The notes below the pieces were generated by a model. The model had not been told where the DNA came from and did no database searches. It saw nothing but the letters and a program-made list of their open reading frames with translations. The position numbers and the translations under genes are program-made. Shown here piece after piece: positions 7,105 through 48,952 of a stretch of DNA of 64,000 nucleotides. Origin of the DNA: Psilocybe cubensis (lineage: Eukaryota); NCBI GenBank assembly GCA_017499595.2, contig CM038998.1, positions 3,038,001 through 3,102,000 on the forward strand, read 5' to 3'. Positions within the stretch are counted from its first letter, which is position 1, and each line of letters opens with the position of its first letter.

Positions 7105-8657
7105 TCACCATCCCTTCCATGGGACCCATACATCAACAACCTCATTTCCCTCGCCTACATCACTATCAATAATATAATACCATGGATATGCCTCATTAAA
7201 GGCCGATGAGAATTAGCGCTCTCCAAAAAGAAAAGAAAGCTTACTGCAGCAGTCAAACAGGCATGTTGGCCAACGATACGGACAATCGTTCCGAGTTTCA
7301 GAGGAGTCGCGCTTGAGTTTCTTGGAGTCAAAATTCCATGTTCTTGTGATATCCTTGATAGAGTCCATGGAAGACCGATGACCTCCCCGAAGCTTCCTGA
7401 AGGACCTGTGTCTTTGCTAAATGCGATAGCCCCGGCGTCCACCAAAGCTTCATCGACTCCATCCACGCCTCTGCCAGGGTAATATGATACTACTGTTGCC
7501 CTGACATGTTGGGCGATGCGAGCATAATCGATCAAGCTCGTATGTTGTTGTTGCAAATCTAGCATAGGATAATTACCTATGAGAAGATTTAGTAAAAAAA
7601 TCAAATGGCAATGATAATTCTCGCCTGCATGAAGCTCCAGAGTACCATGCAACACTTCAGAAAGCAGTTCCCTTGTCTGTTTACTGGCAGCGTGTGCCGT
7701 TGGTGTTGATCCAACAGACAGTGTAAATGGTTGGGTAACATCGACACGATGATTCAATTTCGAAATCATATCCAGCGCGTACTCGGCGGCGATGTTTACA
7801 GCTCGAACCTCCCCGGACAAAAATGCAGAGGCATCAGAAAGTGACGTCGATGCGTATGAATTTCCTGCATGCCCATAAAATCCAAAAAGCCTAACAAATT
7901 TAGATTTCACAACGGCATCAAGAAGGGAGTAAAATACAGGTGATCCAGGAGATACTCCAGCACGGCTAGATTGTATCAGCAAAGGTCAATAACTCCAATG
8001 TCGTCAAAACTGACTTTTGACCACCGTTTATTTTAATGAAGACAGACCACTTGGCCGATGTTGCTTGATTGGCTTCAAATTGATCCAGAAATGTGATTTG
8101 GTCGGGATGGTCAACTAGTAGCCGAACGATACCTCCACTTTGAGCAAATTCTTGTCGAAGATTCGAAAGATCTTGCACTTTGTTTATAGCAACTGGGAGA
8201 CCGTATAACAGCTATTAAAAAAACTCATCTTCATGAAGTATTTCAATGATGTCTGGAACACTCACATCTTTGACCGTGGAATCTGCGACTAACCCGCTAC
8301 GGACAACCTGCCAAGCCTCCATGAGAGTGGAGACAATAACAGCATGTGTTTGGTTTGCTTGTGAATGTAGTTGGAGCCTTGTTCCTTCAACGGTCTGTTA
8401 CTCCGTTGATTATTAGCAACTCCAGATCATTTCGAAAAAAGGCTCACTTTGTGCGTCTTGAGATGAGCACGGAAGGTCGCACCCCAATCCAGTGCCTTTT
8501 TGTGCATGTTTGCGCAATTATGCGCAAACAATTTGCGGTCAATGAAGATAGCTGGAGTTCTGATACTGTCGATGGGTTTCCCAACATATGCATCGAGAAG
8601 TGCTTGCTTATTTGGGCCGTTGAGGAACTCCAGGGGTGTGTTTGATTGCAACGCCAT
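7105..8657 (-). CDS. DSD1: D-serine dehydratase / D-threonine aldolase-like fold-type III PLP enzyme
   Basis: Motifs FRAHLKTHK (PLP lysine), YGHAGNSY, SVGSTPTAH, GNYPMLDLQQ, SQEHG, HAC (metal ligands) and C-terminal WVPWKGW. Confidence 0.88.
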
Positions 8658-15101: not shown

Positions 15102-17439
15102 CTACTGATGGGCTTGCATAATGGCGTCAGATATGAACGCCGCGGAAACTTGTCGACCACCAAACCAGCGACCGTTTAGGCCTTGAATAGCTTTCTTAGC
15201 CGATTCAATAGTTTCAAATTTGACGTAGATTTCGCCCTGTTTGTGTGTCAGAAGTATAAAATTGCTCATTCAAAGCAATACACACCTGGGTTTCTTTTTC
15301 GACCTTGATTGCTGTGACTGAGCCATACTTGTTTTCGCATTCTCCTTTGACATCTTCAGCCAAATCTTTGTCCCAGTCGCGTTCCGTTTCCCTTGAAAGG
15401 TCAGTTAACAAATGACAATTCATGGAACTTGGAATGAACATACTCCTCTGGATCAAACATATTCTTCAACAATACGGAACGAGATTGCATGGATTGAGGA
15501 ATATTGACGCGTGGTCTACGTTTCTCTGGTAAGATATCAAAAATCTTGATTGCTGTGATAAACTTACGCAGGCTCTGGAAGAGAAGGAGCAGATTCAGTC
15601 CTAGCAAGTTTCTGCATCAGTGCTTGTCGTGAAGCAGCGTTCAAGTTACCACCTGAAAGTACTGTCAGTATCAACTGAGAATTTAGAAAAGACTGATTCC
15701 TCACCGCCCGCTTCATCTAAGGAATCCTGTTGAGTGTACTTAGCGGTTCCCTTTTCATGAACAGTGTTGACGCGAAGCTATATTTTTCGATTGAGAGAAC
15801 TTCCATGATGAAAAAAAGCTTCGCCTACAGTACGACCAGCAAGCTCAAATCCTTCCATTTGTTCAAGAGCCATTCTAGCATCCTCAGAGCGCTTGTATCT
15901 AAAGACGCGTAAGGTATTGCTTCCTAAAAAATGGAGTTGACATACTGAACAAAGGCATAGCCCTTACTGCGCCCTGTCATCGGGTCCCTATGCAAATCGA
16001 CAAATTCAAGTTCACCAAAAGGTTCAAACACCTGCTTGATATCGGATTCGGTAAGGTTGAAATGCAAAGAACCGACATATAACCTGATAAAGAAAGAGTT
16101 AAATATTGAGACGTGTGTACGTAGAAAAGACCTACTGCATAGATCCATGGGACGATGTGACCCCTGGAGGGAGATTAAGGCTTCTAAAAACTCCATTAGA
16201 CCTCAGCAAAAGTTGACAAAATTTGACGCATACCCGTCACCCGGATGTAATTTGTTTCTTTCAGATTCAGTTAGTTGTACCATGATGGGTAGACCCATGA
16301 CTACTGTGCCAGAAAGAGCAAGAGCCTTTTCTACGAGATCAATAGACCGGAACTCAACATAACCAATCCTTCCCAGAATATCATTAGTCTTCAAGGGAGC
16401 AGAACAAAAAAAAAGTTTAGTCACCCTTTAGATCGACGAGATAGCCTGTCAGTGACAATCCTTGAATCCATTACGGTTCCTTCCCCGAGCTTATCTTCGA
16501 AGAAATAGCCTAGGTCTCGAGCGGTCAAGCGCGCAGCAAGTTGCGAAACAAAAACTGATCGTGCTTCAGAATCGTCTTCTTTTGGTTCATCAGGATTATA
16601 CGGGTCATCCATTTGATTATCGTATGAAGGGTATGATGGAGAGCCCCGTCTGCACATAATGAGATATATGACTGTTACAAACAATGGCTTCCTTACCTAA
16701 CACCCGGCGGCGGAGGGCTCCTCATGCCAAGTTCGTCGTCGTCATCATCGAGGGGACGACTACGTCTTCTTGCACTTCTTGGATCATCATAATCATTTTT
16801 GTCACCTCTTCTACGGTCTCCAGAACGAGCTGAACGAGGACTGTCCCGGGGAGGGGGTGGGGGTGGCAAGTTTGGAGGGGGTGGTGGAATATCGTCTAGT
16901 GTTTCGGACCTCTTTCTCTTAACCCTATCGTCGTGATCGCGTTCTGGTCCATCATAGTCTTCAGTACGCTTTCGCCTGCGATCACGGTCCTCTCTATCCC
17001 TATCCCTGTCTCTCTCTCTGTCCCTGTCCCCTCGTTCCCTATCCCCTCTATCTCTATCGCGTCGACCGTGTCTAACATCAGGCCCGTCATGCCTGCTGCT
17101 ACGATGTCCTCTATCCTCTCTGTCACGTCGGCGGTCCCTATCACGATCCCGATATCCGTCGCGCGAACGGTCCCGGTACCCTCTTTCACTTCCTCTGTCA
17201 CGACTGCGACTTCTTTTTCTTCTTTCGTCAGGCTCCCTTCGTCTATCTTTCTTGTCATGGTCGTGGTCTCTTGACACAGATCGGTGTGAGCGCCTAGTGC
17301 GGAGAGTATCAGTAGACAAATTCCGAGAACTACAACTCAGTGAGAAATGACAAAATCTGTCAAAATGGAATATTCGTGAAACGTACGAATGATTGTTTGG
17401 AGATTTATCAATTTCCATTTTGCCAGTAGCCGAAGACAT
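15102..17439 (-). CDS. RBM39/CAPER (CC1.3, Rsd1-like) splicing factor with RS/RD region, two RRMs and a UHM domain
   Basis: RD/RS-rich N-terminus; RRM1 SVFVSQL...RSKGIGYVEF; RRM2 LYVGSLHFN...RSKGYAFVQY; UHM SVLLKNMFDPEE...LNGRWFGGR. Confidence 0.92.
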
Positions 17440-17905
17440 GCAGAGTTGAATGAGGTAGAGTGCGAGTCGTAAGAGAGGTCAGGTGTGACCAAAAAAACCC
17501 GCGACACTCTTTGCTTGTCCGTATTTATACCCTGAGGGTCATCGCCTCAGCCTTTGCTTTGATTTGATTGAGCTCGAGTTATTAATGTGCTGCAAGCAAT
17601 CGAAGGGCTGATACGCACAGGTGTGTTTGCACACCGTTCTACTCTAACGTATCTAACTAATGGTCTGCGATGGTGACTTATACTGTATCTCTAGGCAAAA
17701 AGAGGGGTAGGTTAAGGTAAGATTGTTGTTCCATGTGAAGTTCATTCTTTTTGCATCCAGTACCTGTAGTATTTTTGAGATAGCCACATGTATGTTGGCA
17801 CTGGAAAAATAGTCGTAGGTGATCATCAATAGGACTAATATATACATAGAAGACATCCTCTGAAAACCAAAACGGTTGAAGCAGTAAAAAATGGCTGGAT
17901 GCGCC

Positions 17906-19429
17906 CTAAAGCAAACCAGCCAATCTTTCTCGCACTCTTTTTTCCGCTTGTGCCAATTCCGACTGTTCCATTTGTTCATACAATCGATTCAACGGATTGT
18001 CAAAACCCTCCAACTCGAGCTCGGGCTCAATATTGGTAAGGTGACGGGAAAATTTTCCACTAAGAATCTAGACATTTGTTTGTTAAGCTCGAAAAAATGT
18101 TGAACAGAATGCTTGCGATAACGCATACTCACCTGATTATTTAGAATATCTTTAAAATGGGCCCTAGTGGAAACGCCGTCCAAAGACAGAGCACCATTAA
18201 GTTGCCCATACTGCGATACTATAGAATGGTGCTTTAACTGAGAACGAAGTGTTATATCCAAGATCCCTGTATGTTCAAGATCCAAGGGAGAATACCTGGG
18301 TGATAAATCCCTCTTCTGCTGCACGTTCAAAGATCTCAGCAGGCTCCTTTGACATCCACCTGAAATCGCGATTTAGACAGTTATCACAAATATTCAGAAC
18401 AAAATGTACATTTCATAACACAATGCCTCATCTGAACATCCTGCTTCCTTTAGCACACTGAATGCTTCGCTATGCGTTGGCATTATGTGAGTATTGGGTT
18501 TCATAAAAGGAAGATGAGGTGTACTGACCGAAACAGCATGATGATATTTGGCCAAAGTGCTTGTTCTATCACAATATTGTTTATTGGAAGCGCAAACCAT
18601 TACGGGTAAACTCACCAGCAAGAAGATCCATAGCCGTTTCCTCACGAGCAGAGGAAGCTATTGCGCCAGCTTTAGTTGCGCCAATTGCTCGAGAAAGAGC
18701 CAGGGCGATAGAAAATCCCTTCCCAGTGCCATCTTGTTCGACCGAAACGAAACAAGGATATCCCTTGCCTTTCTGATAAAGCGAGCGTACAGAACTTCCT
18801 ATCATTCTAGTGCAAACATATCAGAGCCATCGAAAACAGATGAATGACGCAAAAGAATACCTAGGGGCAACCATAACAACGTCTTGTTGCGGGCTAAAGG
18901 TCAAAAGTTTGAAGAGAACATTATATCCACTGGCCACTACAATGGTCGCAGACGGCTTCAAGTTGGGAGCGAATTGTTCGTTGAAAACTTTGGGTTGTAC
19001 CTGATCAGGGATGAGAATGAATAAAACTAAAAACGAAATTGATGTCAAATTGTCTGCAACTTATCAAAGTCGGATACTCACTGTCGGCCACAAAAGCTGC
19101 CTTGACGAAATCGTGTTCAACTATGAAACCTTTGGAGGTCGCATCTTCTGCATATGCATCCCTACGGTTTGCAATCAAAATTCTCTCGTTAGGAATACCA
19201 GAATCACGCAAATTCTGGGCCTGAGCGGCGCCCTGATTTCCAAAACTAATAGCAGCGCTTTAAGTTAGGCATTAAATGACCTATTTGATTGGAAATACCC
19301 AAGGAAGACAATCTGCTTGCCCTCCAGGAGCGAGAGATCTGCATCTGAGTCATAATATCTATTTCATCATGTAAATTCCTTTCTGTGATTTGAGCTGTAA
19401 ACAAGAACGAACATTTTGGCAGATGGCAT
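17906..19429 (-). CDS. Short, prokaryote-type (class I) ketol-acid reductoisomerase-like oxidoreductase with divergent active site
   Basis: The spliced product reads [42 protein letters not shown]...ILIPDQVQ...ASGYN...VVMVAPRMIG...EETAMDLLAEQAL...HSIVSQYG...RERLAGLL*. This follows the bacterial IlvC layout and has no mitochondrial presequence. Confidence 0.85.
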
Positions 19430-19768
19430 ACTAGTGAAAGGTAAATGGAGGCGATAGAGGCTGGCCAAGAAAAGTCGAAATGAGAATGTGCGTGGTGAGA
19501 AAGATAAGCAATCAGGATTGAATGACCAACTTTTGGGTGTTCCTGCCTGAATCCCATGAGCTGATAAACGTAGAATGTCCTGGTGACTTCAGAAGAAGTA
19601 GGCTTGTTCATGTTCTTCCCAACGGGCCGCCGAGATGATGCATCTATAAGGCTTAGACGGGCCGGCTCATTCATGCGACATCTATTTATTTGGATGTCGT
19701 AGGCATATTTAATAAGATCTGGAAGATAGAAAATGAGCAAGTTACGTGGAATATTTGCGATTCTTCCC
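19430..19768. promoter_or_regulatory. Shared divergent promoter region of the IlvC-like and LRA1-like genes
   Basis: Head-to-head ATGs at 19429 (-) and 19769 (+), with AT-rich TATA-like boxes such as CTATAAG and TATTTAA between them. Confidence 0.6.
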
Positions 19769-20846
19769 ATGTCGTTAGCACCTAACAAGGTCGTGTGTAT
19801 TACGGGAGCATCTAGAGGGATTGGCCGAGCATGGTAAGCAGAAAGGATCCATTTAATTTTTAATAAAATAAAAATGCATATCGATTGCAGTGCTCTTGAA
19901 TTCGTGAAGCAAGGAGCATTTGGGTTGATACTACATTTTCTTGGAGATGAGGAGACGACGCAAGAGATATATACTCTTCAAAAGGAAGTGGAAGAACGAG
20001 GTGCTCAGACCGTTATCATACCTGGAGATATCGCGAAGATTGAAACATCCAAAAGGGCAAGGTCAATTATCCAGTCTGTTGAAAAACAACTTACCTTTCA
20101 ATCAATAAAAGATAGTAGAAAACGGAGTCAAGAAATTTGGACGGATTGATGTCCTGGTTTCCAACGTTGGGATATGCCCATTCTCCGACTTTTTGACGAT
20201 GCCTCTAGAAACTTGGGAACGTACACGCCAGGTAAATCTTGATGGGACGTTCTATATTGTACAAGGTACATCAGTATGGGAAATAACTGGGTGATAGGCG
20301 AGCTGATATAACTACACCCACCAGAGGTCGCAGTCCAGATGACAAACCAGGTTCCACAAGGAGGTTCACTGATAGCAATTTCCTCCATCTCCGGTCTCCT
20401 TGGAGGTGCACAACAATGGTGGGTCAGCTAAAAATAATGAATCACCTAAATTGCAATTCTGAAGTTGACAATATCGGCCAGTCATTACGGGCCAACTAAA
20501 GCAGCCATAACTAACCTGATGCAAAATTGCGCGGTTGCTCTGGGAAAACACGGGATTCGAGCAAATTCTATTTTGCCTGGAACGATTGCCACTGACATCA
20601 ACAAAGAAGACCTGAAAGATAACACCAAACGCGATTACATGATCAATCGAACGCTCCTTGGTCGACTTGGAAGTAAGTCTTACCCACCTCTGTATCATGA
20701 GAATCCCCAAGGCCGCCGTTGACTTTTGCTGGGTAGATCCGGAAGATATCGCGGGTCCTGTCGTTTTTCTAGCAAGCGATTTAGCGCGATATATCACTGG
20801 AGCGTCTATCATTGTTGATGGAGGCCTGTTCGTCAATTTTCAGTGA
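19769..20846 (+). CDS. Short-chain dehydrogenase, L-rhamnose 1-dehydrogenase (LRA1/RHA1)-like
   Basis: Motifs [23 protein letters not shown] (YxxxK), [38 protein letters not shown] and the terminal [10 protein letters not shown], which closely resembles the end of fungal LRA1 proteins as I recall them. Confidence 0.85.
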
Positions 20847-20956
20847 CCGAAAATTAGGGTTGGGCCCTCCTTATTTCCATTGAGTTCTATTTAGCTTCCA
20901 CCAATTCAGCCAAATTATTTGGACAATGTTGAACGTATACATTTCCGAAACATTGC

Positions 20957-21698
20957 TTAGGAGAGAAATTCCGGGACAAGGGCTTTTCCGTCGATTACCA
21001 CTGGGTCTGCCGCAATAAGGACGGTTATCCACCGGGCCCAGTGCACAGAAGGATTTCTCCATGCGTGCATAGTGCCTTTTTGGATGACAGTATCACCTGG
21101 ATTCTTCAAGTGCTTCTCAGTACCATCTTCATTAATCAGCACCAGTTCCCCTGACACTAGGAACCGACAGGTTGGTTTCACTGAAAACCAGGTGTGCGCA
21201 ATGATGACATACCTAGTATATTATAATCTAAAGAGCAAGTGCGATGCTGCGGTATACTAGTTTGCGGAGATCTCCTTCAATGCATAGGAAGCACTCACCA
21301 TTCCCGTGATGGCACCGGGGGCTAATTCAGTGGAGCGCAGATTTGTTCCTGTAGGATGAACAAGTCCAAAGTTAGAAATGTCTTCGATTGTGCGTTTTCC
21401 ACCGTCCTCGCTGAGCACGTCATTAGAAAAACAGGTGTGAGCACACGAGTTCACTGACCTGTTGTTGTTATCGTGTGTGGGGATGGAGTCTGTTGTAACC
21501 CAAATTGCAGCTGATTTGCCTCCTCTGACGAGCTCCATTGCCTATGCATATAATGTGAACGACTACTGACGAGCGACAAACTAGACACACTTCGGCTGGT
21601 ATTTCGCTATCGCTCACGACAACAGAATGCCCCTTGTTGTCGTGAGAGGTGACGATTCGGCGGAGATGGGGCAAGGTCAAGGCAAAAGGTTGAGACAT
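20957..21698 (-). CDS. Cupin-domain protein (fungal cupin_2 type)
   Basis: N-terminal LRRIVTSHDNKGHSV, GTNLRSTELAPG, SLDY.ILVSGEL, and cupin motif 2 PGDTVIQKGTMHAWRNPS. Confidence 0.85.
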
Positions 21699-21963: not shown

Positions 21964-23348
21964 CTAAGGAGCAGTGTCTGTGAAAACTCAATCAGTGACC
22001 ATAATGGGATGAAATAAATGAAAGTTTGGCGTACAATAATAATAATCGTCGATCAATGGCATCCAATCTTTCAGTAAAGCACCGAATAGTCCCAGTAGAG
22101 GCGTGTGTGCGGTCCGAGTAACAAAGGATTCGAGTTTGGGTCTATAAATTGTAATCAATAAAAAACGGATGATAAGATATTAGCAAAACAAACCGAGTAT
22201 ATGAATTCCAAATAGATCCGCGAAGGAGATACCAGAGTATATCTTTGTCTCTTTTGGCGTATTCGGCTCGTTCAAGCTCGGCCGATGCTGGTGGTGTTCT
22301 GCGGAGGCTCCTTGAAGCAAATTCCATTAGTAAAACTATTGTTATAGCCCGGTTTGACCGTTCTAAAGACCTCCGGTCGGCAGCCACAAGCGACGCTGTT
22401 GAAGAAATCAATGAAACTATAGGGGTAAGTAATGCTTATTCTGCCCACCATAAACCAGAGGACGGAGAATGAATATTGTTTCCGACAGCCAGTCTCGAGG
22501 GCCCGAAAGCTTTCTCATAAGAGAGATGGATGGCTTGACTGATGATGTAGTCAAGGCTTTTGGAAGTAAGTAGTCTTCAGCCGAAACATTTGCCTGAGCG
22601 GATGTAAGTAATGGATGTGGGGGTAGAGGGACGTGGTTGTTGCGAAGGTGGTCTGGAGTCATTGGTGGTGAAGCTTGAGGTGACGAGGGTGCCAGAGTAG
22701 GCGATGAAGTAGTGCTCAGAGATGGCAAACTTGCAGGATCGAACTCCCGTTCGGGAATTGGTGGTGACAACAATGGTCTGCGAGTGACTTTCAGCAGGAA
22801 TAGTCGTAAGGCTGCTCTAAGAGTTTGATGAGTCCAATGTCCACCTAATAGCATTGAAGTAGATATATTTACTTGATCGCCTCAAGAAGAATGACGGCGC
22901 GCCACCTTGTTTTCTCAGAAACTTTTCGTCTTAAGCCCATTTCAACCACAAGCTCAGTAAAGCGAATTATTTGTAGGACGCGAGACGTCAGCCTGTACAG
23001 CGTATTCTTGTCAGTCCATGCTCTTGTGTAGCGGGTATGTAGGCTTGTGGGGATAAGGGGGCGGTATGAAGCATTGGCCTTGACTATGCGCGCCAATAAT
23101 GTGTCGTGATACATGCTCGTTACATTAAGCAGAGAAGTCACTACACAAGCCGTTTTTGTTAACTGATTGTCCATTTTTCAAAATACACTAAACGAGATGG
23201 TCAACTTACAAGCTTCTGACGCGAGCTCTGCATCTTTAAAACGGCCAGGCAAGAACCAAGTGATAGACCGAAGCGATGACTCTAAGGTAGAGATAGTAGA
23301 GACATTATTTATAAGAAAGGTCTCGTATTTATCCTTGGAGGACGCCAT
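21964..23348 (-). CDS. PEX16: Peroxisomal membrane biogenesis protein Pex16
   Basis: Motifs YETFLINN..STLESSLRSITWFLPGRFKDAELASE, YHDTLL, EYAKRDKDILWYLLRG and PLIDDYYYYT. Confidence 0.92.
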
Positions 23349-23464
23349 AGTATAGACGAGGACCAAGAAAGAGACGAGCGCAGGTTATGATACTCTTAGC
23401 CGAGTGTCGCACTTGATTCCTCGAAGACGCCGACCCGGAACGTTCTCATGATCACGCCCTGTCA

Positions 23465-43287: not shown

Positions 43288-45233
43288 ATGGCCGGACTAC
43301 CTCTTGAAGCAATCAAATCGTTTTCTGATGCTCATCCAAAGCCATCCGAACTCCATTTTCAGTACGGAACAGCGGGCTTTAGGACATTGTAAGTTGGCGA
43401 TTGTTTGTTTTCCAATCCTTTGTTCACATCTACCTCAGGGGAAATACCTTGGATTCTGTGATCTTTCGAGTTGGTATACTTGCAGGATTGAGAAGCAAGA
43501 AAATGGATGGGAGGACCATCGGTGTAATGGTCACTGCGTCTCACAACCCTGAGCAGGTCAGTCGTCTACACTATACCATTACCTCTGTGGTGGCTGACTG
43601 ACGATATATCGTCAAGGATAATGGCGTCAAGCTTGTTGATCCACGCGGAGAAATGCTAGAAGCATCGTGGGAGGCACATGCCACTGTTCTCGCGAACGCT
43701 CCTACCACAGATGCATTGGTAGAAGCGCTTGAAGCGCTTGTAATCAACGCGAAGATTGATCTTTCTAAGCCATCACGGGTTGTTTATGCTAGAGATACTC
43801 GTCCTTCAGGACCAGCTCTCATATCTGCCCTTGAAGATGGCTTCAAAGCTTTGGGTGTTGAAGCACGAGATGGCGGTATAACAACCACCCCCATACTTCA
43901 TTACCTCGTCAAAGCTATCAACACGAAGGGATCAAGTGAATCATACGGCGAAGATTCAGAAGAGGGTTATTACACTAAACTCAGCGAATCGTTCAAAAAG
44001 TTGATCGTACGTCGATTGATTATTGTGTAAACGCGACGTATTTATTTTTCTTCGTCAGTCTGGGAGAACCAAACCAAGTCCTTTGGTTATTGATTGTGCA
44101 AATGGTGTTGGTGCCCATGCCGCTGCTAAACTATCCACTTACCTCGGAGAGTCGCTGCCCATGATCCTTGAAAATACTGCCACATCTACTACCGGTACTT
44201 TGAACGACTCGTGCGGTGCAGACTACGTGAAAACTATGCAAAGATTACCTCCCAACTTGGTTAATGTCATGAAACCGGGCCAAAGAGCGTGCAGCTTAGA
44301 CGGTGATGCAGATCGGCTGATGTATTATTATTTGGATGAACGTGGTTTATTCCATATGTTGGATGGTGACAAGATTGCAGCGCTGGTTGCGGCTTTCATC
44401 GTGGAACTTGTCAAACTTGCCGGTCTAGATTCTGAGGTCAAGGTCGGGGTAGTCCAAACAGCTTATGCCAACGGAGCATCAACCAAATATTTAGCTGAGG
44501 TAGGTCACGATTTGATGTGTTTTGGTTTATAAGACCACTTATGCCTCTTCACGTGTGTCTTTGTGCAGCGTCTGCCTGTCAAATGCGTCCCCACCGGGGT
44601 AAAACACTTACACCACGCAGCAGAAAATTACAACATCGGGGTATATTTTGAAGCCAATGGCCACGGAACTGTCATCTTCTCTCCAAAAACCCAAGAGAAA
44701 CTTGCCCAGCATGAGCCATCGACTCCCGCACAGTCCACAGCACTTAATCACTTGATAAACCTAACCCAATTAATTAACCAGACCGTGGGTGACGCATTAT
44801 CTGACATGCTGCTCGTTGAAGTCGTGCTAGCCCATAAATCATATTCTGGGGTGGAATGGAATTCTTTGTACGCGGATCTGCCAAACAGGCTGGTCAAAGT
44901 CGTAGTCAGCGACAGGAATAGCTTCAAAACCGAAGATGCAGAACGTCGTCTTGTCAACCCTCCTGGATTGCAAGCCAAGATTGATGAACTTGTTCAAAGG
45001 TATGAAGCAGGACGGTCTTTTGTTCGACCGAGCGGAACGGAGGATGTGGTGCGAGTATATGCTGAAGCTGCAGTAAAAGCTCAAGCGGATGGTGAGTCTA
45101 CGTCAACATTCGGTTCCTTGACAGAGGTGGATGGCTAATCCGTGAATTTCCAGAACTTGCGTTTCGGGTTGCAGGACTTGTGTACGACGAAGCAGGTGGT
45201 GATGCCTCCAAACGACCCAAGGAGTTTCTTTAA
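43288..45233 (+). CDS. PCM1: Phosphoacetylglucosamine mutase (AGM1/PGM3)
   Basis: Motifs [27 protein letters not shown] and [15 protein letters not shown]. Confidence 0.96.
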
Positions 45234-47608: not shown

Positions 47609-48952
47609 ATGAACCCGTGGTTCATCTGGAGTGCCATCTTTAATACAGCAAGGTACGGAATGTCCAGGCTTCAACACATATCGAGTAGTACTGAATTTAG
47701 TGTAGACTGTCAACAGCTCTCCAAATTCTCATTTTCCTTCCTTTAACATTGGCCACCATATCCAATGATGCATTCCTCTTACTCTCTCTTATGCTGACTC
47801 TCCATTCCCTCATACATGGCACGATGAGCCTCTTCTGGGGTTCACATGCACTCTCCGTGCTCCAAGTGCCAATGCATCCGTTTTTACTGCTGCTTTGTTT
47901 CAACATATTTTCGTCTTCGCCAAATCCGTGGCTTCCTTGGGCAGCACAGTGGTGGGGTACGCTCCTGACATTCTCGGGGCCGTTATTCATCGTTATGGAG
48001 GGGTTATCGAGTCTTCTGGTTGTCCAGAAACTTGGTCAGGGAGGGAAACGACTAGCAGCCAGAGGGGAGGCATATCAATTCGGGCTTTTGATTGCGACCT
48101 CCATTGCATATGTTGCTTCAGCATGGTGGATTGTAAATGTAAGCATTGCCGTTCCTTTCTCAGGGTACTGTGGCTTATTCCGTCATTGTAAGTCATACCC
48201 AACAGCAGCGTCATCGCCCCTATCTTCTACCCTGCTTGGAGTCGCGATAACGGCATTCCTTTTCCTCACTATCATTGGTTTTGTGCTGCGTCGGACAAAC
48301 ATTATTGAGTCGTCCGGGCTTGCAGTTTTCATTGCTTACAATGTTTGGCTATGTGGTTTCGACCAAAAATCATTCACAGATCCAGCATCATCATAGTAAG
48401 TGCTGTCAAGTTTTCCCATAATACCTTGTTGATTTGTTGCATTAGTGCCCCTTTATTGCCAAATATCCTTCCTCACATCCAAACCCTACTCAATTTTGTG
48501 ATTAACACATTGCCAAAACCCGTCCTTATTGCCCTTTTGTATCGGTTGTCTATTCTACACCTTGCGTCCGGCATTCTTCCTACAATTGGTGCAGATAGCT
48601 GGGAGTCTGAAGAAGGCGTTGATGACAACTGGAACGATAGACCGGTTAGTCCAATCAATATAACGGTGTGCAGTATCTTTAACAGGATTATCGTCCAGAC
48701 TTCAATGTTAACGCGTCTGCTGTTAACATACCGTCAGTCAATATTCATTACTGTTTATTCTCACTTACTCCGTAAGCATTACTGGTTCCCATTGGTTACT
48801 CTTCCCTCACCCTTTTTCATCTAGTCCTAGACCACTCGTCTCAAATATGGTGGAGATGGATGAACATTTTTTTCACCCTGGTCATTTGGTCTGTGGAGCT
48901 GATCGTCAGCTCCGAGGACGACATTGCGGCAAAGGAGTACAAAGTAGACTAA
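47609..48952 (+). CDS. ICE2: ER membrane protein Ice2
   Basis: Multi-TM protein with SGPLFIVMEGLSSLLVVQKLGQ, STLLGVAIT, RRTNIIES, ITVYSHLL and WRWMNIF. Confidence 0.82.

Follow-up and report, generated by a model that had tools for sequence, protein, structure and literature searches.

An ancient divergent gene pair of Agaricomycetes encoding a KARI-like protein and an L-rhamnose 1-dehydrogenase-type protein, with a possible role in acid-sugar metabolism

The 64,000-nucleotide stretch of Psilocybe cubensis contig CM038998.1 analyzed in this study (positions 3,038,001 to 3,102,000 of the forward strand; hereafter the window) carries three neighboring genes, encoding a ketol-acid reductoisomerase (KARI)-like protein, a short-chain dehydrogenase/reductase (SDR) resembling L-rhamnose 1-dehydrogenase (LRA1) and a small cupin, and the question raised by this locus is whether their products serve one pathway. 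An initial annotation had proposed an undescribed catabolic unit, in which the SDR would oxidize an unusual aldose to its acid and the KARI-like enzyme would then rearrange the carbon skeleton, outside of branched-chain amino-acid synthesis. The KARI-like and SDR genes are an ancient conserved divergent gene pair of Agaricomycetes, which the cupin gene adjoins in Agaricales. Gene models were built by hand from a six-frame view and then assembled by script, resulting in the following arrangement:

17906..19429, minus strand: predicted class-I KARI-family paralog, ATG at 19429 and stop at 17906, 341 amino acids (aa), 10 exons (17906-18067, 18133-18237, 18296-18357, 18408-18469, 18529-18565, 18616-18806, 18861-19026, 19082-19245, 19299-19358, 19413-19429)
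19430..19768, no strand: divergent spacer between the KARI-like and SDR genes, 339 bp, set by the ATG positions
19769..20846, plus strand: LRA1/LraA-type SDR, 259 aa, 6 exons (19769-19833, 19891-20056, 20112-20263, 20323-20417, 20481-20672, 20737-20846)
20847-20956: spacer of 110 bp from the SDR stop to the converging cupin gene
20957..21698, minus strand: small cupin of the 3es1/StrC type, 178 aa, 5 exons (21698-21591, 21541-21459, 21410-21299, 21246-21213, 21156-20957)

The three genes and both spacers of the initial annotation were thus recovered with exact coordinates and intact frames; a pseudogene or artefact reading was rejected because all three reading frames are intact and conserved. 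Introns across the window are 50-70 nt long. Exon-level searches returned 100% matches to P. cubensis proteins: the KARI-like model equals residues 48-388 of P0001 and the cupin model equals P0241 (both at 100% identity), and the SDR model aligns over its whole length and without gaps with P0122 of P. cyanescens (92% identity). In Pfam scans of single exon pieces, KARI_N was detected in three of six KARI pieces (E 2.5e-7 to 1.2e-13), adh_short or adh_short_C2 in three of five SDR pieces, and Cupin_2 weakly, under its cut-off, in one of three cupin pieces.

Splicing was followed in contigs of two runs of a single study (X1 and X2), whose kind was guessed to be RNA; these contigs are unstranded and were not used as expression evidence. 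The intron-less, joined form was present at 13 places, corresponding to 10 introns of the KARI-like gene (9 coding and 1 in the 5' untranslated region (UTR)) and SDR introns 2-4, and a DNA run from the same organism had none of the 13 joints. The nine coding joints of the KARI-like gene are all of the GT..AG type. SDR intron 2 (20057-20111) is of the GC..AG type, with its joint in one X1 contig at a depth of 3.2. For SDR introns 1 and 5 no joint was seen in X1 or X2, and these were modeled from protein alignment alone, as was the whole cupin gene, which has no X1/X2 cover beyond 21083. The additional noncoding intron is:

19461..19530, minus strand: 5'UTR intron of the KARI-like transcript, 70 nt, with the joint 19460>19531 in both X1 and X2

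Linkage of the three genes in other mushrooms was assessed from tables of the best 120 of 235 matches to the KARI-like protein, the best 120 of 471 matches to the SDR and 61 matches to the cupin. By a reading of these tables, the KARI-like and SDR genes lie on longest contigs of equal size in 22 of the 23 species named in both lists, which cover six orders (Agaricales, Polyporales, Hymenochaetales, Corticiales, Gomphales and Amylocorticiales); the sole exception is Taiwanofungus, for which strains were mixed. The shared contigs include ones as short as 63.6 kb (Phlebiopsis), 95.7 kb (Coniferiporia), 125 kb (Cytidiella) and 154 kb (Panus). Among seven species with sequential locus tags, the two genes carry consecutive tags in five (Paramarasmius, Cerrena, Coniferiporia, Hohenbuehelia and Marasmius tenuissimus) and tags 12 apart in Panaeolus cyanescens, the seventh tag being incomplete. 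For the cupin and SDR genes, contig sizes agree in each of the 13 species that both lists name, which all belong to the Agaricales; their tags are consecutive in Hohenbuehelia and Agrocybe chaxingu and differ by 17 in Gymnopilus dilepis, and in Amanita inopinata the KARI and cupin tags differ by 425. Additionally, two intron-bearing environmental fungal contigs, L085 (10.3 kb) and L119 (5.2 kb), carry the genes in the order cupin> <SDR KARI>, the spacer measuring about 415 bp. The linkage on which the initial annotation had staked its proposal is therefore conserved across the Agaricomycetes.

The profile and PDB searches for the KARI-like protein used the orthologue P0002, which is 83% identical to the window protein and stands in for it. 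P0002 contains both KARI domains (KARI_N, 168.8 bits; KARI_C, 80.8 bits), and its scores lie under all NCBIfam KARI equivalog cut-offs (233.3 vs 336 for NF004017, 191.7 vs 226.15 for TIGR00465 and 166.2 vs 406 for NF009940). Its top PDB relative is 6jcv, the 'putative KARI 2' of Sulfolobus (E 5.3e-56, residues 11-333 aligned), and the fungal mitochondrial KARI 7toc matches at an E of only 1.3e-16. A look-up in the ESM Atlas returned KARI-named clusters only. All five orthologues displayed begin with MP(S/A)AK and align with the bacterial proteins from residue 1, so the protein lacks an N-terminal presequence. Judged by its sequence, the protein is cytosolic, a class-I paralog within the KARI family that descends from bacteria, and is not of the mitochondrial Ilv5 type, in agreement with the initial annotation, which had set it apart from a normal fungal Ilv5. 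Compared with 7toc, it belongs to the same superfamily and shares the same Pfam N-terminal domain, but it differs in the missing mitochondrial presequence and in its origin and is a paralog rather than the orthologue.

A scan of prokaryotic genomes, in which relatives were found with the patterns YEMWMSK and MVAPRMIG, yielded 80 loci with 41-54% identity to the fungal protein, and two trees were built, a careful one with 60 rows and a quick one with 122 rows. In the 60-row tree, the fungal KARI-like sequences form one clade (100/100 support), composed of Agaricomycetes and a small group of P0302 with two metagenome sequences; P0302 is assigned to Elasticomyces elasticus by one public source and to Exophiala sideris by another, both ascomycetes. 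The fungal clade joins a clade of Actinomycetota and Chloroflexota (98/94) at 100/99. The window protein resembles 6jcv, of the Sulfolobus ilvC2 type, in its two-domain architecture, its Ser/Arg signature (ASGYN, APRM.G) and its aligned acidic ligands, but it is eukaryotic and intron-rich, and its clade is sister to the actinobacterial and chloroflexotal paralogs and not to archaea. Canonical ilvC and the paralog occur together in Pseudonocardia acaciae and an Actinomycetospora (437 and 430 bits for ilvC; 213 and 191 bits for the paralog), and an ilvBN operon context was not seen in the annotated loci of the closest bacterial relatives.

The neighborhoods of these closest relatives, whose inspection the initial annotation had suggested, include paralogs situated inside acid-sugar catabolic clusters. 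Neighbors were clustered and then scanned with Pfam and NCBIfam, an acid-sugar family being counted when it lay within 6 kb (<=6 kb) of the KARI-like gene. By this measure, 9 of the 32 sister-clade loci from Actinomycetota have acid-sugar genes beside the paralog, as do 12 of the 80 named loci overall and 2 of 80 metagenome loci. In two actinobacterial subclades of the sister clade, the clusters are of two types. Type A is seen in L017 (6991-12708), with the order DeoR, DUF1537 kinase, PdxA-family dehydrogenase, KARI-like gene and IlvD/Edd dehydratase, and in L014 (9965-13484), where IlvD/Edd comes after the KARI-like gene and is itself followed by an aldolase of the dihydrodipicolinate synthase (DHDPS) family; the IlvD/Edd protein of L014 reaches 875.7 bits with the model of a dihydroxy-acid dehydratase subfamily, 804.7 vs a cut-off of 882 with that of L-arabinonate dehydratase and 463.1 vs 618.15 with that of canonical ilvD. 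Type B (L022, L027 and L052, about 7.5-15.5 kb) has a divergent DUF1537 kinase followed by a cyclase-family gene, the KARI-like gene and a major facilitator superfamily (MFS) transporter, with an additional IlvD/Edd in L052 and a SerA-like dehydrogenase in L022.

In 2016 the Gerlt laboratory reportedly described bacterial pathways for tetronates and acid sugars that involve DUF1537 kinases and PdxA2. The sister-clade loci resemble these pathways, for which Ltn3D is described in PMC12994016, in having DeoR, a DUF1537 kinase and a PdxA-family gene beside the KARI-like gene, but no such partner genes were found in the fungal window. As described in PMC13753588 and PMC12994016, 3-oxo sugar acids are fed to DUF1537 kinases. 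Such 3-oxo acids are made from aldonates by the D-apionate oxidoisomerase ApnO (EC 1.1.1.421), which has a KARI-like fold and a two-metal site, performs an NAD-linked oxidation and 1,2-shift on 2,3-dihydroxy sugar acids (D-apionate, D-erythronate and D-ribonate) and, according to PMC13753588, passes its product to a DUF1537 kinase; in bacteria, the sister genes of the fungal one likewise adjoin DUF1537 kinases. However, according to the same source, ApnO has about 15% identity to KARI, with four active-site residues in common, and is called convergent, whereas the window protein is a true KARI-family member. At such low identity the window protein is not expected to belong to the ApnO subfamily, and no ApnO-named chain was present among the 38 PDB matches of P0002. 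The initial annotation had called ApnO KARI-related; the likeness is at the level of the fold only, and ApnO serves instead as a mechanistic precedent. Since a literature search combining DUF1537 and KARI gave the ApnO work alone, the role of a true KARI paralog in DUF1537 clusters appears to be undescribed.

The SDR was assigned through its orthologues as well. The full-length orthologue scores 202.8 bits on adh_short_C2, and P0122 scores 351.1 bits on the NCBIfam model RhamDHLra1, with the next families at 234.5 and 195.9. The top PDB matches are 7b81, which we take to be AvLRA1, and 7do5-7, with 292.5 bits compared with 151 for FabG, the next match. AvLRA1 of A. vinelandii is named as a characterized enzyme in PMC12028159. 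The SDR is 54-56% identical to proteins of Caulobacter and Brevundimonas, of which P0193 (Caulobacter) is named L-rhamnose 1-dehydrogenase by one source and the remainder are named just SDR-family oxidoreductases. The spliced model contains a glycine-rich cofactor motif with Arg (TGASRGIGR type) and the catalytic Tyr and Lys in HYGPTK, as in a classical SDR with a Ser/Tyr/Lys catalytic set, and the Arg of the cofactor motif (G[AS]SRGIGR) is shared by the window SDR and all eight relatives displayed. According to PMC12028159, this position is tied to NADP use in a bacterial dual-cofactor enzyme, whereas the characterized fungal LRA1 enzymes all carry Thr in the glycine-rich motif and are NAD-only. 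On these features, the SDR is clearly LRA1-like and is taken to be the basidiomycete orthologue of L-rhamnose 1-dehydrogenase, with a bacterial-type Arg motif compatible with NADP.

As the first enzyme of its type, the SDR invites comparison with the fungal cluster for non-phosphorylative L-rhamnose catabolism (LRA1-LRA4, or lraA, lrlA, lrdA and lkaA, with rhaR). The window SDR corresponds to LRA1/LraA, but its neighbors are a KARI paralog and a cupin; a lactonase, a dehydratase, an aldolase and a Zn2Cys6 domain (RhaR) were all absent among 20 long open reading frame (ORF) pieces of the window in an incomplete Pfam scan, within whose scope the initial annotation was right that the usual LRA1 partners are absent nearby. 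A gap in the basidiomycete pathway is described in PMC9781776, where the basidiomycete gene is counted as an LraA orthologue: P. chrysosporium and D. squalens are reported there to conserve LraA and LkaA orthologues and to be missing those of LrlA and LrdA, for the lactonase and dehydratase steps, and alternative enzymes are suggested. This published gap lends support to the initial annotation.

Given the fungal aldose 1-dehydrogenase context, the actinobacterial kinase, dehydratase and aldolase context and the gap described in PMC9781776, the single most likely reading is that the KARI-like enzyme and the SDR act on one acid-sugar route. The sugar-acid idea of the initial annotation is accordingly plausible while unproven, with a probability that we would put a little under one half. 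The scheme that follows, from the substrate and the direction of the reaction to the joint action of the gene products and a part played by the cupin, is inferred and conditional. The SDR would oxidize an L-rhamnose-type aldose (of L-rhamnose, L-lyxose, L-mannose or L-fucose configuration) to a lactone, leading to the aldonate. The KARI-like enzyme would then use its retained two-metal site and NAD(P), either to oxidize and isomerize the 2,3-dihydroxy acid to a 2- or 3-oxo acid, in ApnO-like chemistry, or alternatively to reduce a keto-aldonate. This chemistry would substitute for or circumvent the lactonase and dehydratase steps, whose orthologues are missing in basidiomycetes, and the cupin may assist a dehydration, isomerization or decarboxylation. 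A more specific form of this proposal is that a true KARI subfamily of fungi and Actinomycetota was recruited out of amino-acid synthesis into sugar-acid catabolism as an aldonate oxidoisomerase or keto-aldonate reductase. In Agaricomycetes, together with the LRA1-type SDR (plus the cupin in Agaricales), it would then provide a third route, as yet undescribed, by which 6-deoxy sugars of the L-rhamnose type or other L-configured sugars are degraded without lactonase and dehydratase, for example through a 3-oxo-aldonate decarboxylated to a 5-deoxypentulose; we regard this form as speculative, with a probability somewhat below one third. A literature search found nothing on the KARI-like/SDR gene pair or on a fungal KARI paralog, and a search on L-rhamnose, L-rhamnonate dehydratase and Agaricomycetes gave no Agaricomycete pathway by title among the matches listed.

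The strongest competing explanation is that the genes form no functional unit at all. The KARI-like protein would then be an ordinary cytosolic ketol-acid or 2-keto-acid reductoisomerase (such as another KARI or a ketopantoate reductase), the SDR a plain L-rhamnose 1-dehydrogenase with partners elsewhere and the cupin unrelated, and the genes would have stayed adjacent through inherited synteny, to which a short promoter region in common would have contributed. A considerable number of observations weigh in this direction and against a shared acid-sugar route, beginning with the two genes that flank the three:

15102..17478, minus strand: rsd1-like RNA-binding gene (RNA recognition motif (RRM) and an Arg/Asp/Ser-rich region), RRM_1 on 15924-16202, outside the proposed unit
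22142..23384, minus strand: Pex16 gene beyond the cupin, Pfam Pex16 on 22417-22881 and 22869-23177, within the conserved block in Agaricales but outside the proposed unit

The rsd1-like gene lies downstream of the KARI-like gene on the same strand, and the environmental contig L085 retains the full order of the window (next gene, Pex16, cupin, SDR, KARI, rsd1); in both L082 and L085 the KARI-like gene is followed by rsd1. An RRM protein is fused to the KARI-like protein in 9 gene models among the best 120 KARI matches, and 4 of the 61 matches to the cupin are models in which it is joined to Pex16. Because the conserved block also includes these unrelated housekeeping genes, the linkage may be plain inherited synteny. 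With rsd1 and Pex16 in the conserved block, linkage is by itself no proof of the functional unit proposed in the initial annotation. The 339-bp spacer has no significant similarity to, and no conserved motif in common with, its 414-bp counterpart in L085 (best blastn E 0.17). As a separate observation, positions 253-3176 of L082, an intron-less, transcript-like metagenome contig, hold a KARI-like ORF followed by an rsd1 ORF; read-through or co-assembly of the kind seen in L082 would explain the nine fused KARI-rsd1 public models.

The active site of the KARI-like protein is similarly compatible with ordinary KARI chemistry. The metal ligands of SaKARI are Asp190, Glu194 and Glu230 (PMC13753588), and in the alignment the matching acidic residues are retained in all fungal rows, namely the D and E of REETAMDL.AEQ and the E of SKEPAE, with a 2-residue insertion in the alignment before the last Glu. 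The canonical His (HGF/HGY) is replaced by Ser (ASGYN) and the canonical Lys (APK) by Arg (APRMIG). The roles of this His and Lys are known from mutagenesis of the E. coli enzyme. The same two replacements are present in 6jcv, presumably a Sulfolobus KARI active on acetolactate, and in all 'APRM' bacterial rows, while the canonical ilvC rows have H and K. In three Chloroflexota genomes (G001, G002 and G024, of the class of L003), of which two are Ktedonobacteria-type and the third belongs to the same class, the KARI-like protein is present (about 210-215 bits) and canonical ilvC is not, whereas canonical ilvC was found in 19 of the 31 genomes sampled of that class. In these three genomes, either the paralog is a working KARI or the assemblies are incomplete. 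One Clostridia genome has an 'APRM'-type protein only, and this protein scores over the cut-off (256 bits). Since some genomes have the paralog alone and others also have canonical ilvC, the 'APRM' subfamily may supply the functional KARI of some bacteria and a supplementary paralog of others. The kept metal ligands, and a subfamily to which 6jcv and the sole KARI homologue detected in certain bacterial genomes belong, make ordinary KARI activity fully possible, which weakens the contention of the initial annotation that the enzyme does not serve branched-chain amino-acid synthesis. The mean column identity of 85% over 12 KARI-like orthologues also looks more like that of a core enzyme than of a niche catabolic one.

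The bacterial and physiological records add to this side of the balance. Among the 80 bacterial loci, none showed an LRA1-like SDR pairing or a cupin, and an SDR was near the KARI-like gene in 12, with 24-32% identity to the fungal SDR; a bacterial co-transfer of a KARI, SDR and cupin cluster was rejected on these grounds. The Ktedonobacteria loci had no acid-sugar neighbors. An LRA1 match over the cut-off was found in none of the five actinobacterial genomes with the paralog near acid-sugar genes (best 194 bits). P0122 itself lies under the equivalog cut-off of RhamDHLra1 (351.1 vs 400), a model made for prokaryotic annotation. In PMC9781776, P. chrysosporium and D. squalens are described as growing poorly on L-rhamnose, sugar-specific protein abundance in P. 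chrysosporium is given for the galacturonate pathway only, and the basidiomycete SDR is treated simply as an LraA orthologue.

Against a mere set of neighbors stand four lines of evidence: the paralog is distinct from the fungal mitochondrial KARI and falls under the KARI equivalog cut-offs; it coexists with canonical ilvC in Actinomycetota; DeoR, DUF1537 kinase, PdxA, sugar-acid-type IlvD/Edd and aldolase genes are its neighbors in the 9 of 32 sister-clade loci; and its linkage to the SDR gene is kept over six orders. Agaricomycetes presumably also possess a canonical Ilv5. Inherited synteny without common function is a strong rival explanation, to which we would assign roughly one chance in three.

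A further alternative arises from the cupin. Its sequence matches PDB entries 3es1 (E 6.4e-21) and 8x0u (E 3.7e-12) by phmmer, and a Foldseek search with its AlphaFold2 model (predicted local distance difference test (pLDDT) score 90.5) returned 3es1 at a template-modeling (TM) score of 0.77-0.84 and the Stachybotrys protein StrC (8x0u/8x0v) at about 0.8 with 24% identity. StrC, the sole characterized structural relative, is described in PMC13463297 as a cupin 'aromatase' that acts after two SDRs. The StrC/VirC/PaltE cupins of fungal alkyl-salicylaldehyde pathways and 3es1 have the same cupin sub-fold (TM about 0.8) and are genomic partners of SDRs, but their identity to the window cupin is 24-30% and no polyketide synthase (PKS) was seen at the window. 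Similarly, the cyclopropanol synthase BurG (7pcc-7pct) is a KARI paralog recruited outside of amino-acid synthesis with most active-site residues kept, and its structures are among the PDB matches of the KARI-like protein (about 160 bits), but BurG is bacterial and belongs to a polyketide cluster, of which there was no counterpart in the window ORF pieces scanned. The cupin matches almost solely Agaricales and is thus not part of the older KARI/SDR pair.

It is improbable that the three genes form a tailoring set for a secondary or signaling metabolite, with the SDR and StrC-like cupin acting as in alkyl-salicylaldehyde pathways and the KARI paralog repurposed like Burkholderia BurG, cited as a repurposed KARI in PMC13753588: the StrC likeness and the public name of P0241, which refers to an oryzine cluster protein, speak for such a set, but among the 20 ORF pieces there is no PKS, nonribosomal peptide synthetase (NRPS), terpene synthase, cytochrome P450 (P450) or transporter, the flanks are housekeeping genes, the SDR is far nearer to L-rhamnose dehydrogenases than to other SDR families, the cupin has only the noted 24% identity to StrC and lies outside the older pair, and the strong conservation of the pair and its presence in nearly all Agaricomycetes are unlike typical metabolite clusters.

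The divergent arrangement of the pair may also leave traces in the transcript contigs and in public annotation. Contigs of the KARI-like transcript reach upstream to 19808 (X2) and 20056 (X1), over the 5' part of the SDR gene, and the contig pieces 19531-19808 and 19531-20056 cross the spacer into that gene; because the contigs are unstranded, they do not establish a single transcript across the spacer, and they may represent overlapping divergent transcripts, antisense RNA or unspliced pre-mRNA. In the intervals 19531-20056 and 19804-20228, SDR intron 1 is unspliced in the X1 and X2 contigs and intron 2 is also unspliced in X2. At 20613 one X1 contig breaks off with 13 loose letters matching 20690-20702 within SDR intron 5, which may be an alternative junction or an assembly glitch. 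The public protein P0001 (388 aa) has a 47-aa N-terminal extension derived in part from the antisense strand of the SDR gene, and the UniProt SDR entry P0121 is a mere 133-aa fragment; both (window 19430-20430, both strands) look like annotation errors arising from overlap of the divergent transcripts. Just inside the 3' end of the cupin coding sequence, position 20965 is G in the window and A in the near-identical DNA run X3, which is a strain or allele difference. Elsewhere in the window are a protein with a D-serine-dehydratase-like domain (7155-7985, minus strand), a phosphoacetylglucosamine mutase (AGM1; 44533-45138, plus strand) and an ICE2-like protein (47701-48396, plus strand), which have no obvious relation to the three genes.

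The genes of this locus belong to known families, and the consequences differ with the explanation that applies. Should the genes be neighbors without common function, the locus would still show that fungi have a cytosolic KARI of bacterial type, which matters for antifungals and herbicides aimed at KARI, and would warn against inferring function from conserved synteny blocks. If instead the KARI-like enzyme and the SDR act on one acid-sugar route, this would constitute a variant of the non-phosphorylative deoxy-sugar route together with a new functional branch of KARI. Basidiomycete decayers of wood and litter are without orthologues for two of the four fungal steps of the rhamnose pathway according to PMC9781776, and such a route could fill this gap. 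It would also be a second example of reductoisomerase chemistry in catabolism, reached by divergent evolution beside the convergent ApnO, and it would explain the KARI paralogs in the actinobacterial DUF1537/PdxA/IlvD-Edd clusters. Finally, it would provide a function for a protein that is about 85% conserved across mushroom-forming fungi and is now mislabeled as an amino-acid biosynthesis enzyme.

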